NCBI GenBank assembly: GCA_964355955.1
Contig: CAYHFQ010000006.1
Span: forward strand, 11,633-43,632
DNA: 32,000 bases
Source: an uncultured Gammaproteobacteria bacterium
GTDB lineage: Bacteria > Patescibacteriota > Patescibacteriia > UBA9934
Reading direction: 5' to 3'
Within the stretch, counting starts at the first letter, position 1. The number at the start of each line of letters is the position of its first letter. The notes beneath the pieces were generated by a model. It was given only the letters and a program-made list of their open reading frames with translations. It made no database searches and had not been told where the DNA came from. Positions 3,511 through 22,113 of the stretch are shown piece by piece. A program made the position numbers and the translations under genes.

Positions 3511-3531
3511 TGAAAAAAAAAGGAGATAAAC

Positions 3532-3557
3532 AAAAACGAGCCAATTGGCTCGTTTTT
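3532..3557. terminator. Bidirectional intrinsic terminator between the PPIase gene and rpmA
   Basis: AAAAACGAGCC-AATT-GGCTCGTTTTT, with A/T runs on both sides. Confidence 0.75.
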
Positions 3558-3584
3558 GTAACTGTACTTAAAGGCCCCCTCCAA

Positions 3585-4249: not shown

Positions 4250-4615
4250 GTGGCTGCTTTTCTTAAAAACCTACGTTTTGCTCGCTTAGCCCTGGTTATT
4301 TGTGGTCTGTTGTTGCTGGCTGGGGTGCTGCTCGTTTGGTTTGCCTTGTTTCCGGCAGTGGAAACCTGGCGTGTTGTGCCACTCCATTATAATATTCACC
4401 TTGGTGTGGATAAGGTTGGCAAGTGGTGGGAGCTTTTTGTTCCTTCGGGGATTGGCGTAATTTTAACCTTGCTTAATGCTGGTTATGCGTCAATAATTTG
4501 GAAGCGCGAAAAGGTGATTGCTTATGCGGCGATTGTGACGGCGGTGATAGTCGATGCTTTAATTCTGATTCACTTAATTTTCCTTGTTCATTTGAACGTC
4601 ACTTATTATGCTTGA
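4250..4615 (+). CDS. Hypothetical integral membrane protein (GTG start)
   Basis: Three predicted hydrophobic helices. Overlaps the mraY start by 8 nt. Confidence 0.55.
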   Translation: MAAFLKNLRFARLALVICGLLLLAGVLLVWFALFPAVETWRVVPLHYNIHLGVDKVGKWWELFVPSGIGVILTLLNAGYASIIWKREKVIAYAAIVTAVIVDALILIHLIFLVHLNVTYYA

Positions 4616-6797: not shown

Positions 6798-6823
6798 GTA
6801 GATTGTAGAGAGTAGATAGTAGA
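6798..6823. repeat. Heptad array (GTAGANN)x4 in the ftsW-murG spacer
   Basis: GTAGA at 6798, 6805, 6812 and 6819: exact 7-nt period. Confidence 0.8.
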
Positions 6824-6834
6824 ATTATAATATT

Positions 6835-7917
6835 ATGTCTCAAGAGCAACATTTTTTACTAACCGGTGGTGGGACGCTCGGCAGCGTGACCCCGCTTTTA
6901 GCAATTGCGGCGGAATTACGGAAGCGAAATGCTAATGTATCGCTGTCATTTATTGGCACGCCGAATGGTCCTGAGCGATTGATTGTGGAGAGCCAACGGA
7001 TCCCTTTTTGGCAGTTGGCGGCGCCGAAACTTGACCGTCATCGTAAGTGGCTGTGGCCTATTTTACCGTTCATGTTTTTCTTTAGTTGGTTGCGGGCGTT
7101 GCGCCTGTTGTATGTCATGAAGCCGAACTTTGTTTTTGCGGCTGGTGGTTATGTTGGCGTGCCGGTCGCTTGGGCAGCGTTCTTTTTACGCATTCCGGTT
7201 TGGGTGCATCAGTTAGATGTATTGCCAGGCTTGGCGAATAAGCTGATGGCGCCAGTAGCTAAGAAAATTAGTGTTACTTTTGAAGAAACGGCTAGACATT
7301 TTTCGGCTAAAAAGACGATAGTGGTGGGTAGTATGGTGCGCCAGGCGATTCGTCATGGCGAAAGGGAGATTGCTTTGCAGCGTTATGGGTTTAACGTGGC
7401 TCTGCCGACCTTGTTAGTGGTTGGTGGTGGCACAGGTGCGGCGGCGATTAACGAGGCCTGTGCGGTTATTTGGCAGGACTTGGTACCATACATGAACGTG
7501 TTGCATTTGGTGGGTAGAGGTAAAATGTTGACGGCACTCGAACAGGCAAAACCCAGTTATGTGGCACTAGAGTTTTTAAATGAAGGCATGGCCGACGCTT
7601 ACGCGATTGCAGATATTGTAGTGTCGCGAGCAGGTCTAGGAACGATCTCGGAGTTGGCGGCACTGGGTAAGCCGGCGATAATTATTCCAATTCATGAACC
7701 GTTCCAGGAGGCCAATGCTCGAGTTTTGGAAGAACGAAAAGCAGCGCAGGTGATTTGGCATACGACACCACAGATATTAGAACAAACCATTAGGCGCTTG
7801 CTCGACAACCCAGAACTATGTGCAGATCTCAGTAAGAATATTCGAGGATTGTTCGCTTTGAATGCGGACGAACGTATTGCGCACGAAGCTTTGACTTTAT
7901 TAGCTCCAAAACTATGA
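6835..7917 (+). CDS. murG: UDP-GlcNAc:lipid I N-acetylglucosaminyltransferase
   Basis: Motifs GGGTLGSVTPLLAIA, VVGGGTGAAAIN and VVSRAGLGTISELAALGKPAIIIP. Confidence 0.92.
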   Translation: MSQEQHFLLTGGGTLGSVTPLLAIAAELRKRNANVSLSFIGTPNGPERLIVESQRIPFWQLAAPKLDRHRKWLWPILPFMFFFSWLRALRLLYVMKPNFVFAAGGYVGVPVAWAAFFLRIPVWVHQLDVLPGLANKLMAPVAKKISVTFEETARHFSAKKTIVVGSMVRQAIRHGEREIALQRYGFNVALPTLLVVGGGTGAAAINEACAVIWQDLVPYMNVLHLVGRGKMLTALEQAKPSYVALEFLNEGMADAYAIADIVVSRAGLGTISELAALGKPAIIIPIHEPFQEANARVLEERKAAQVIWHTTPQILEQTIRRLLDNPELCADLSKNIRGLFALNADERIAHEALTLLAPKL

Positions 7918-11636: not shown

Positions 11637-11663
11637 CAAAAAAACAGCCTAGGGCTGTTTTTT
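11636..11663. terminator. Bidirectional terminator after tRNA-Lys
   Basis: AAAAAAACAGCC-TAG-GGCTGTTTTTTT. Confidence 0.75.
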
Positions 11664-11738
11664 TGGTGCGCCGAGCGGGGATCGAACCCGCGACCACAGG
11701 CTTAAAAGGCCTTTGCTCTACCACTGAGCTACCAGCGC
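11664..11738 (-). tRNA. tRNA-Lys (anticodon UUU), CCA encoded
   Basis: Manual cloverleaf: GCGCTGG/TA/GCTC-AGTGGTA-GAGC/A/AAGGC-CTTTTAA-GCCTG/TGGTC/GCGGG-TTCGATC-CCCGC/TCGGCGC/A/CCA. Confidence 0.93.
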
Positions 11739-13276: not shown

Positions 13277-13550
13277 TAGGCGGGGTTACCACGCCCCGCT
13301 GTATCTGTCTTTGCGAGCGTCAGCGAAGCAATCTTGGCCAGCGATTCGCCGTTCCAGTCAACGCGAGACTCGGGGAGTCCCTTTCTTTCTCCGTCGGGCG
13401 TTTAGACGATCGACAATTACTATTGAATGTGAATTGTCGACATATAAACGCGCGTCCCTCGGTCGACGAAAGGGACATCCCACTCGTCTTCGTTGACTAC
13501 GGGCTCGATAATACGTTTAATCTACCAACTACCGACTACCAACTTTTCTT
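13277..13550 (+). repeat. 274-nt modular GC-rich intergenic element (copy A)
   Basis: Modules AATAGGCGGGGTTACCACGCCCCGC (13275-13299), GTCTTTGCGAGCGT (13307-13320) and GAGACTCGGGG (13365-13375). Hairpins at 13410-13440 and 13454-13476. GATAAT at 13507-13512. Heptads CTACC at 13522, 13529 and 13536. Confidence 0.6.
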
Positions 13551-17496: not shown

Positions 17497-17771
17497 AGAT
17501 CTAATCCGTCTTTGCGAGCGTTAGTAATAGGCGGGGTCACCGTCCCCCGCCAGTAGAGACTCGGCTCCACGGCCAAGGCTCGGGGACATTACTTCGCGGG
17601 TCCTGCCGACTGCGGACCCCGTTCGGTGCTCGCAAGCTGCGCGCCGCCCGGGGGCCTCCCTCCGCGTCACCCGCTAAAGGAATTAGCCTGCCTCTCGCTA
17701 CTTGGCCTTACAGGTTCAATAATTCGTCAAATCTACTTTCTACCTTCTACAATCCACTAGCTCACTACTCT
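17497..17771 (+). repeat. 275-nt modular GC-rich intergenic element (copy B)
   Basis: GTCTTTGCGAGCGT at 17508-17521. Hairpin module AATAGGCGGGGTCACCGTCCCCCGCCAG at 17526-17553. GAGACTCGG at 17556-17564. GGGTCC/GGACCC at 17598-17619. AATAAT at 17718-17723. Heptads TCTAC at 17732, 17739 and 17746 (TCCAC at 17753). Confidence 0.6.
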
Positions 17772-20672: not shown

Positions 20673-20699
20673 AAAATCGACCTATTGCAGGTCGATTTT
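20673..20699. terminator. Bidirectional terminator shared by rpmG and tmk
   Basis: AAAATCGACCT-ATTGC-AGGTCGATTTT followed by a T run. Overlaps the last tmk codons. Confidence 0.7.
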
Positions 20700-21311
20700 T
20701 TCTATTATGCGTTGGAAAACTTCTTCGCGGCTGCCGTTAGCGTCGACGGTTTGCCAGATATTGGTGAATTTGGGGTGATGGCTCAGGAAGTCGTAACCTT
20801 CGCGACAACGGGTGAAAAACTCTACCGGCAGGCTTTCGAACTTGTCACCAGCTGCGTCGCTGGTACGTTTAAGGGCTATGGCTGGATCGAGATCGAGACA
20901 GAAGATGATATTGGGTAAGTATTGCCCGACAGCAGCCTCGTTGATCTTCCAAATCGCGTCAAAGCCGAGTTCACGGCCAAAGCCTTGCCAAGCAACGCTG
21001 GTTAGGAAGCTGCGGTCCGCAATGACAATTCCGCCAGCCTCAAGAACGGGGGCGATAACAGTGCGAAGAGACTGGGCGCGGGCGGCGGCGTAGAGATAGG
21101 CTTCGCAGATGGGGTCCATGGTTTCAGCAAAAGGCGTGCCTTGGACGACTTTGCGAATAGCTTCGGCGATTTCGCTGCCCCCTGGTTCGCGGGTCCAGAT
21201 AACCTGCCGATCGGGGAAACGATTGGTGAGGTAGGCTTGCAGCTGCTTGGATTGCGTGCTTTTGCCGGTTCCCACGACGCCCTCGAAGACGATGTAATAG
21301 CCTTTAGTCAT
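20682..21311 (-). CDS. tmk: Thymidylate kinase
   Basis: P-loop FEGVVGTGKSTQ directly after MTKGYYIV. I prefer the ATG at 21311; the track start at 21368 would lie inside the 56-nt palindrome. Confidence 0.85.
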   Translation of the reverse strand: MTKGYYIVFEGVVGTGKSTQSKQLQAYLTNRFPDRQVIWTREPGGSEIAEAIRKVVQGTPFAETMDPICEAYLYAAARAQSLRTVIAPVLEAGGIVIADRSFLTSVAWQGFGRELGFDAIWKINEAAVGQYLPNIIFCLDLDPAIALKRTSDAAGDKFESLPVEFFTRCREGYDFLSHHPKFTNIWQTVDANGSREEVFQRIIEKIDLQ

Positions 21312-21344
21312 ATGGGTAGAGTTTAGCATGAAATCAAAAAGAGG

Positions 21345-21400
21345 TGTGGATAAGTGGTCTACATTCAACGTATACGTTGAATGTAGACCACTTATCCACA
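21345..21400. repeat. Perfect 56-nt palindrome (28-bp arms); minus-strand terminator-like; arms end in consensus DnaA boxes
   Basis: All 28 pairs checked base by base. TGTGGATAA at 21345-21353 and TTATCCACA at 21392-21400. On the minus strand it is followed by CCTCTTTTTGATTTC. Confidence 0.85.
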
Positions 21401-22000
21401 GGTGAGGCGGCCGGCAGCGATTTCGATGGCGTCGGCGGGGCGGAGGTTTTGACGTTGTTTGGGGGTGAGAATGGCGTGATGTTTAACGTTGACGAGATGA
21501 ACGGGTATATACCAGACTGGTTCAACTGATGTCATCCAGCCCTGTTTGTCGAAACGGGCGAGGTTGACTGGCTTGGTGAAGCTGCGGAGGGTTTTACGGC
21601 CGTCGTTTAAAAAGTATTCATGGAAGTACGACATAACGAGTTCGCGGATGGTGCGGTAGATTGGTTCACGGTAGCGGAGCACGGCGTGATTAGTCTTGGA
21701 AATAGCGCCCCAATGACGGCCACCTTTGAAGACGGCAATGACGTGGTCGAAGTCGTCTTTGCTGCTGGTTAAATCGACGATTAGCGGTTGGTGACCGTGA
21801 AAACGTAAAGCCGCGGCGGCGAGCATGGCGCCTTCCATGCATTGAGCGGTACCGAAACGAATAACTTCTTTAGGTGACAGACAGGTGTCGTTAGCGTCGA
21901 CGAAGTGAAAGGGGAGAGAATTCAAATAATCCTGGATTTTGGCCGGGGTTGAGAGCTTTTTGAGCTGTTTGCGTTCGCTGGCGGTAAAGTCGGAAAACAT
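21392..22000 (-). CDS. Transglutaminase-like cysteine-protease-fold protein (hypothetical)
   Basis: Candidate Cys-His triad context: GTAQCMEGAML ... DFDHVIAVF ... HWGAISKTNH. Confidence 0.6.
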   Translation of the reverse strand: MFSDFTASERKQLKKLSTPAKIQDYLNSLPFHFVDANDTCLSPKEVIRFGTAQCMEGAMLAAAALRFHGHQPLIVDLTSSKDDFDHVIAVFKGGRHWGAISKTNHAVLRYREPIYRTIRELVMSYFHEYFLNDGRKTLRSFTKPVNLARFDKQGWMTSVEPVWYIPVHLVNVKHHAILTPKQRQNLRPADAIEIAAGRLTCG

Positions 22001-22039
22001 AGTGCATTTATGGTATTATTGTAGCAGATAATTACGAAT

Positions 22040-22113
22040 GTAGAATGTAGATGGTAGAGAGTAGAAACTCATAAGCAGAATGAGCCGTCTACCGACTACA
22101 ATCTACATTCTAC
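22040..22113. repeat. Facing heptad arrays (GTAGANN)x4 and (NCTACNN)x4
   Basis: GTAGA at 22040, 22047, 22054 and 22061. CTAC at 22089, 22096, 22103 and 22110. GTAGAATGTAGAT (22040-22052) is the exact complement of 22101-22113. Confidence 0.8.

Follow-up and report, generated by a model that had tools for sequence, protein, structure and literature searches.

A 56-nt perfect palindrome lies at the boundary between two genes in a 32-kb stretch of DNA (hereafter the window, meaning that stretch at its full length) from an Uhrbacteria-like member of the Patescibacteria. The window as a whole is a cell-wall and division neighbourhood, with metK, mraY, ftsW, murG, Mur ligases, ftsE/X, an ABC-F protein and rpmG. 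The palindrome adjoins two co-directional minus-strand genes, one encoding a conserved hypothetical protein of 202 amino acids (aa) and, downstream of it, tmk, encoding thymidylate kinase (Table 1). The original prediction, made from the letters of the window, had named both genes. Its identification of tmk was borne out by the Pfam match; for its label 'transglutaminase-like' of the upstream gene, the only Pfam match is below threshold (DUF553, E 0.058, with 13.3 bits where the cut-off is 20.5). The 202-aa protein occurs widely in Patescibacteria and in DPANN archaea, and its C-terminus here reads ...AAGRLTCG*.

The two arms of the palindrome (21345-21372 and 21373-21400, 28 nt each) are 100% complementary and meet with a loop of 0 nt, and the base on either side (21344, 21401) is an unpaired G; a direct check thus agreed with the 28 of 28 complementary positions claimed previously. 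The outer 9-mers of the arms are TGTGGATAA and TTATCCACA, and both match the consensus DnaA box TTATCCACA exactly, in inverted orientation, as had also been stated. The palindrome had further been placed between the two genes. It does adjoin both, but it is not wholly intergenic, as 9 nt of one arm encode the final Cys-Gly-TAA of the upstream gene. By our own arithmetic, about 4e-13 palindromes of this kind are expected in the window (0.25^28 x 32,000 centres), so chance cannot account for it. Folded as single-stranded DNA, the palindrome reaches -29.4 kcal/mol (z = -14.6), and as RNA in its context -50.7 kcal/mol (z = -8.9). The only other long inverted repeat in the window is an imperfect heptad hairpin at 22036-22113. 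Rfam at gathering thresholds returned three tRNAs only, and a permissive search added one meaningless miRNA match on the palindrome. Avoidance of GTATAC as a restriction site was not seen in the window, which holds 8 such sites where 4.6 are expected.

Copies of the palindrome in the window genome and its relatives

Near-identical palindromes were found elsewhere in the same genome and in a close relative, Candidatus Uhrbacteria LJ_bin-3226, in agreement with the repeat-family membership that the original prediction had listed among several possible roles. An exact-pattern scan (GTGGTCTACATN{8,24}ATGTAGACCAC, one genome per species), which misses copies with other heptamers, returned three copies on three contigs, all from LJ_bin-3226: one at tmk, one after an ABC-2 permease gene and one after an Exo_endo_phos gene (the exo copy). 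By way of the proteins flanking the LJ_bin copies, further copies were reached on a 269-kb contig of the window genome (L024). A profile search of all fetched sequence placed only one copy in the 32-kb window. The copies share the consensus TGTGGATAAGTGGTCTAC-N7-GTATAC-N7'-GTAGACCACTTATCCACA, in which the inner heptamer varies and stays self-complementary, and ENA, NCBI and Logan data each contain the family as assembled independently. At all five independent loci (tmk, ABC-2, exo, a third locus and the tmk locus of the relative DeMMO3_42) the element lies at, or overlaps, a gene 3' end, and every copy is preceded by a co-directional upstream gene. No match to the element was found in phage and plasmid collections or viral contigs. 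Two sets of candidate matches were discarded: the exact-arm pattern gave just two unrelated high-GC chance matches in metagenomes, and an Acidobacteriaceae match from the genome scan (L011) has a non-palindromic loop, about one chance match being expected by our own arithmetic.

Table 1. Locations of the palindrome, its parts, adjoining features, further family copies and GTAG/CTAC arrays (window positions unless a contig is named)
Feature	Location	Strand	Remarks
56-nt perfect palindrome, one copy of a dispersed repeat family	21345..21400	.	Arm match, other copies, family alignment, pair counts, nhmmer scan
Outer 9 nt, gene-proximal arm	21392..21400	-	TGT GGA TAA, final two codons and stop of the 202-aa gene; + strand reads as 'DnaA box' TTATCCACA
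Outer 9 nt, tmk-proximal arm	21345..21353	-	TTATCCACA on minus strand; non-coding; its end 19 nt upstream of the tmk -10 hexamer
Central GTATAC, hairpin tip	21370..21375	.	Kept in 7/8 aligned copies; decaying copy has ATATAC/GTATAT
Variable inner heptamer ATTCAAC	21363..21369	.	Paired with 21376-21382; copies differ, with matching changes on both arms
Upstream gene, 202-aa conserved hypothetical protein	21392..22000	-	3' end formed by the element
tmk, thymidylate kinase, downstream co-directional gene	20682..21311	-	Pfam PF02223, E 1.7e-39
T-rich run CCTCTTTTTGATTTC directly 3' of the hairpin	21330..21344	-	Terminator-like form; similar run in LJ_bin orthologue
TGCTAAACT, extended -10-like promoter element of tmk	21320..21328	-	8-9 nt before ATG; invariant TG.TAAACTCTA in alignment
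LJ_bin ABC-2 copy (J_ABC2)	L009 5105-5160		After ABC-2 permease gene; tips TGGGGATAAG / CTTATCCACG; supplies GGA TAA
LJ_bin exo copy (J_exo)	L012 7726-7775		After Exo_endo_phos gene; one tip lost
LJ_bin third copy (J_third)	L012 5894-5950		Orthologue of W_third, more decayed; two mismatches
Window-genome exo copy (W_exo)	L024 2902-2957		Both tips intact; heptamer GTCAAAG/GTCAAAC; one G/G mismatch
Window-genome third copy (W_third)	L024 4900-4947		One truncated arm; T/G mismatch; AAA_18 gene ends inside
GTAG/CTAC arrays, window	6798-6822, 13522-13539, 17733-17750, 22040-22064, 22089-22113
GTAG/CTAC arrays, relatives	L006 1242-1266 and 2896-2961, L002 604-631, L008 4346-4370, L016 3048-3072

Orthologous loci were taken as contigs encoding close homologues of the 202-aa protein, and looking there for the palindrome, as the original prediction had proposed, gave a mixed answer. 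The 94% relative (L002, L003 and L010; LJ_bin-3226) carries the same 56-nt perfect palindrome, intact apart from one mirrored change, CAACGTATACGTTG to CAATGTATACATTG. The contig of the 90% relative (L007) breaks off within the element, where a variant arm, GTGTGTCTACCTTCAACGT, is seen. A perfect palindrome of 44 nt is present in the 83% relative (DeMMO3_42, L008/L013), with three further mirrored changes (ATCGAGT), the distal TTATCCACA intact and a different tail on the 202-aa homologue (...KLVINNT*). In the 86% relative (DEP96, L004-L006), only a coding 10-nt remnant of the element, TGTGGATAAG, is kept, followed by an unrelated short hairpin. The outgroup, at 69%, has tmk in convergent orientation and another long hairpin between the genes (L023). 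Since the more distant homologues of the 202-aa protein end in ...AGKLxEWxx, the CG* tail is derived; judged from these alignments, the element has taken the place of the gene's ancestral C-terminus and provides the final two codons and the stop (TGT GGA TAA). The converse idea, in which TGTGGATAA would be original coding sequence and a local inverted duplication would have mirrored it, was rejected because distant homologues end in ...EWxx and not in CG*, and because the same tips occur at unrelated loci. Short palindromes of other sequence occupy the post-stop position in some relatives, namely CAACCCTAAGGGTTG in tandem in DeMMO3_42 (L017 2338-2368) and GGCCTAGCCTAGGCC in DEP96 (L006 3618-3632). 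Hairpins at gene 3' ends appear to turn over fast in this lineage.

The ABC-2 site points to recent mobility, because it is filled in LJ_bin only and empty in three relatives: the window genome, where the spacer is 21 nt, DEP96 and DeMMO3. The ABC-2 gene ends CGT GGA TAA at the filled site, and CGT GGC TGA, CGC GGC TAA or CGG GGT TAG at the empty ones. One gain is more parsimonious here than several losses, and the inner 50 nt of the inserted copy are identical to those of two other LJ_bin copies. The intergenic flanks at this site have diverged between the genomes.

An alignment of eight copies showed co-variation between the arms, with five pairs (10 cells) changed on both sides, a count that none of 500 shuffles reached. 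The pairs flanking the variable heptamer, GTGGTCTAC on its outer side and GTATAC on its inner side, are invariant, with the sole exception of a G-U in the decaying copy. The outer six pairs, those of the 'DnaA box', vary most or are lost, and the exact 9-mer is present at 10 of the 16 element ends, the tips being the least conserved part. Uncompensated intermediates occur in W_third (T/G), W_exo (G/G) and J_third (two mismatches), from which it follows that symmetry is restored over time and is not absolute. The heptamer types also differ between the two genomes at orthologous loci, GTCAAAG in W_exo standing opposite ATTCAAT in J_exo and the reverse holding at the third locus, while the genes around the copies keep their order and orientation from one genome to the other. 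This suggests that family copies exchange sequence or are replaced.

We consider it likely, on these comparisons, that the palindrome belongs to a family of intergenic palindromic repeats of about 56 bp in an Uhrbacteria-like lineage of Patescibacteria, and that the family behaves as a miniature mobile element similar to repetitive extragenic palindromic (REP) sequences and miniature inverted-repeat transposable elements (MITEs). The active or propagating form of such an element would be a hairpin in single-stranded DNA or RNA. The complementarity of its arms may be kept up by a need for the hairpin, by intrastrand template switching (that is, quasi-palindrome correction) in which one arm is copied onto the other, or by both, and sequence would be exchanged among the copies. 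At the tmk locus, the hairpin, transcribed together with a U-rich run, probably terminates the transcript of the upstream gene, or insulates it, shortly ahead of the tmk promoter, 19 nt short of its -10 element.

Several observations weigh against this interpretation. The element fails the formal definitions of both REPs and MITEs. No target-site duplication is visible in the flanks (AGAGG|...|GGTGA in the window, TTTTC|...|TGTCA at W_exo and GAGGG|...|GAGGC at J_ABC2), although old insertions could have lost theirs, and no flanking motif common to the copies was found. Neither a transposase nor another mobilising enzyme was identified among the window open reading frames (ORFs), in which their domains were looked for. 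Copy numbers are lower bounds (3 or more for the window genome, 5 or more for LJ_bin-3226), drawn from about 60 kb of sampled sequence and one exact-pattern scan. The local terminator role is specific to its locus, the T-run being missing after the DeMMO3, ABC-2, exo and third copies, and the clear terminators of the window (3530-3559, 11637-11665 and 20673-20699) have another build, an A-tract, an 8-11 bp GC stem and a T-tract. Finally, an exact consensus DnaA box at the element tips is left as an unexplained coincidence.

Terminator, recombination site, artefact or DnaA site

One alternative is that the palindrome is an intrinsic terminator, longer than usual, which arose on the spot between the 202-aa gene and tmk. 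The stable hairpin is followed on the transcribed strand by a U-rich tract, CCTCTTTTTGATTTC here, as the original prediction had reported, and CTTCTTTTGATTTTC in the LJ_bin orthologue, which has the same layout, and relatives that lack the element have other hairpins at the same place; a consensus terminator scan made no call. Against an origin in place stand the same sequence at unrelated loci in two genomes, one recent insertion, the T-run missing from most copies, and the much shorter and differently built clear terminators of this genome. We regard such an origin as improbable: as a complete explanation it is contradicted by the copies at other loci, and it survives as a local function of this copy only. 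The earlier suggestion of an intrinsic terminator is accordingly plausible for the copy with the T-run, but does not describe the family, because most other copies lack that run. Very unlikely, in our estimate, is a site acting at the DNA level, either for recombination or resolution, as a cruciform target, or as the core site of a tyrosine recombinase or protelomerase-like enzyme with arms symmetric around GTATAC. The perfect symmetry, the conserved 6-bp centre and the apparent swap of heptamer types between the neighbouring exo and third copies would fit such a site, but the gene order and orientation around the copies are unchanged in both genomes, several symmetric sites would destabilise one small genome, the window has no adjacent recombinase gene, and the phage and plasmid collections held no match. 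A resemblance to the RYYYAAC/GTTRRRY cores of integron attC sites was also considered; the window copy fits by eye, and the LJ_bin and DeMMO3 variants do not. That the palindrome is an assembly artefact, such as a fold-back chimera, we hold to be practically negligible. Three Logan short-read de Bruijn contig ends (those of L001, L007 and L025) do fall at a palindrome centre or within 2 nt of it, but contig breaks at palindromes are expected assembler behaviour and no evidence of a chimera; the two flanks of the element differ and each is syntenic with relatives, and the full element was assembled through in several independent assemblies and samples. The original prediction had called for a check of palindrome-associated breakpoints: the breaks found are assembler effects and not rearrangements, and other assemblers read straight through. 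The Logan contigs that terminate inside palindromes are L001 (at its end, 3630), L007 (at its end, 3628) and L025 (at start and end), the last being a 2010-bp contig bounded at both ends by two family copies.

The original prediction had listed first among its possible roles a DnaA titration or regulatory site coupling tmk (dTTP supply) to initiation. On that reading, two inverted high-affinity boxes would titrate the protein or provide the coupling, and the repeat would be a vehicle that spreads such sites. Both tips are the exact TTATCCACA, the end of the tmk-proximal box lies in the usual -35 zone upstream of the tmk -10 element, the 9-mer is kept exactly at the ten element ends counted above, and in DeMMO3 and J_exo one box persists though its partner arm is gone. 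There is also a third exact box at 4405-4413, as claimed, within a 12-mer (4403-4414) shared with the palindrome tip, which simulation makes borderline (P ~0.04). An origin context is absent, however. GC skew on the plus strand is strong and uniform, from +0.15 to +0.30 across all 32 kb, and the switch that was to be looked for near the palindrome does not occur in the window. The window ORFs include no dnaA, dnaN or transposase domain, and the window has no box cluster: boxes with one mismatch number 11 against 6.5 expected, which is not significant. An origin or DnaA cluster was rejected on the monotonic skew, the housekeeping gene content and this lack of enrichment. The gene-proximal box is coding sequence formed by the element tip, DEP96 has that coding box and no second one, conservation within the family is lowest in the outer six pairs and complete in the non-box core, and the distance from box to -10 element varies, with 19 nt here, 28 nt for DeMMO3 and some 36 nt for the ABC-2 copy. 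Titration or coupling to tmk is not supported by this pattern, and we think it unlikely. Still less probable, on our reading of the sequences, is a combined form, in which a self-propagating palindromic element would carry working high-affinity DnaA boxes as its termini and each insertion would plant a pair of DnaA sites beside a promoter, here that of tmk; in this way a mobile and dispersed network for DnaA titration or regulation would come to a reduced Patescibacteria genome, moved by an enzyme other than the known RAYT or IS200-type transposases. The earlier account had named in advance, as a refutation, a generic repeat of many near-identical palindromes without box ends. The family found here comes essentially to that, with one difference, the box-like tips being part of the consensus and not missing. 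Most likely, the TTATCCACA tips are simply the terminal sequence of the repeat family and their match to the DnaA box is incidental.

Other repeats and structured stretches

A 121-aa ORF upstream of mraY contains the third TTATCCACA and the surrounding 12-mer, GGTGTGGATAAG, which are in frame there (G V D K). The 12-mer could be a chance match or the remnant of an element tip.

The -10-like element of tmk, TGnTAAACT, is kept in four relatives, whether the palindrome is present or not. Such TGnTAAACT or CTAACT elements stand 8-9 nt before the ATG at tmk (21312-21328) and at several other genes (for example L009 5062-5075 and L016 2340-2358). The genes concerned have no obvious Shine-Dalgarno sequence, and the two features together suggest that their mRNAs are leaderless in this lineage. 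The three ordinary terminators of the window noted above are perfect palindromes of 27-30 nt and are presumably bidirectional.

Arrays of GTAG (or CTAC) with a period of 7 nt (8 nt in L002) and variable spacer bases occupy short spacers just upstream of gene starts, in the window and in relatives (Table 1). At 22036-22113, two inverted GTAG arrays stand on either side of a GCTCAT-N7-ATGAG centre, which is conserved, and their fold reaches -39.7 kcal/mol (z = -6.3). From one relative to another the arrays change fast, and they gave no Rfam match; their UAG-N4 spacing recalls HutP-type RNA sites or GTAG-tagged REPs. The original prediction had observed that an inner 9-mer of the palindrome, GAATGTAGA/TCTACATTC, recurs in this heptad region, and it is indeed found at 22036, 22043 and 22102. 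By simulation, about 98% of sequences would have a 9-mer in common with the window somewhere, and a link between the palindrome and the heptad hairpin is not supported: a chance match is expected, and the orthologous heptad array of LJ_bin differs and has no 9-mer in common with the palindrome.

A second family of perfect palindromes, 26 nt long and containing CGTC (ACCACGTCGTTCGCGAACGACGTGGT), was seen in LJ_bin-3226 at L012 7694-7719 and 1558-1583, the two copies having two mirrored differences. The copy at 7694 is a clean insertion relative to the window genome (L024 2958-2975; CAATTG^ACAAC, with TG duplicated) and lies beside a copy of the 56-nt family. In the window, the unusually long ftsE-ftsX spacer contains a GC-rich, structured-looking stretch of 220 nt (17500-17720) with no Rfam match at either threshold. 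In LJ_bin-3226, three adjacent perfect hairpins with 3-nt loops and stems of 16, 13 and 13 bp lie within 120 nt of intergenic DNA (L009 2442-2560).

Relation to known elements and significance

REPs are imperfect palindromes of 20-40 bp with an unpaired GTAG or CGTC tag, found mostly downstream of genes and in many cases linked to RAYT transposases, and REPINs are two inverted REPs parted by a spacer (PMC3733652, PMC3116915). The Uhrbacteria element resembles these as a short, dispersed, non-coding hairpin repeat, mostly downstream of coding regions between co-directional genes, whose arms co-evolve, which is plausibly transcribed as an RNA hairpin and which has no target-site duplications. 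It differs in being a single near-perfect or perfect loopless palindrome of 56 bp, neither a 20-40 bp unit nor a doublet with a spacer. Its GTAG/CTAC is internal (arm positions 15-18) and paired together, its ends are TGTGG...CCACA with no unpaired tag, its observed copy number is low in the sequence sampled, no RAYT gene (an IS200/IS605-like Y1 tyrosine transposase) was seen among the window ORFs, and its host phylum is Patescibacteria. By eye, the 28-nt arm is itself no clear palindrome and offers only a weak 6-bp TGTGGA/TCTACA pairing.

MITEs are 70-300 bp long with terminal inverted repeats of 15-30 bp (PMC3733652). The termini TG...CA and the 28-bp arms, of the size of terminal inverted repeats, recall elements such as Correia/NEMIS, RUP and ERIC, as do insertion beside or into gene ends, the ability to supply stops and a strong hairpin that may affect expression of a neighbour. 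However, the element is shorter, at 56 bp, consists of two abutting inverted repeats with no internal core, and has no visible target-site duplication; a parent insertion sequence with matching ends was not found in the phage and plasmid collections or in viral contigs. Rickettsia palindromic elements are likewise palindromic repeats of a reduced genome that can become coding sequence, but they are longer and lie in frame inside genes, whereas this element replaces only the extreme 3' end and gives the stop. The likeness to an intrinsic terminator is confined to the tmk locus, where a stable hairpin and T-rich run lie between a gene end and the next promoter; the stem of 26-28 bp is not GC-rich, and the T-run begins after CC. 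With oriC, datA, DARS and DnaA-regulated promoters, the palindrome shares two exact TTATCCACA 9-mers, one of them beside a promoter, but it has no cluster, DNA-unwinding element, dnaA/dnaN or skew switch, and its boxes are repeat tips, one coding, that are not conserved at the orthologous site and keep no fixed distance from the promoter. In the literature on Patescibacteria (the candidate phyla radiation, CPR), we found no description of such small mobile repeats.

These elements break short-read assemblies at predictable points, and where DnaA boxes or origins of uncultivated genomes are called from motifs, the calls can be misled by them. If it were true that the tips bind DnaA, the family would be an unusual mobile element that spreads replication-initiator sites. 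Because the arms stay complementary while their sequence drifts, the family offers a compact natural case for asking how palindromes are kept up, by selection for the hairpin or by template-switch correction. For the organisms themselves, the family remodels gene 3' ends and supplies stop codons, and although the genomes of Patescibacteria are small and streamlined, repeats of the hairpin type still persist and move there.

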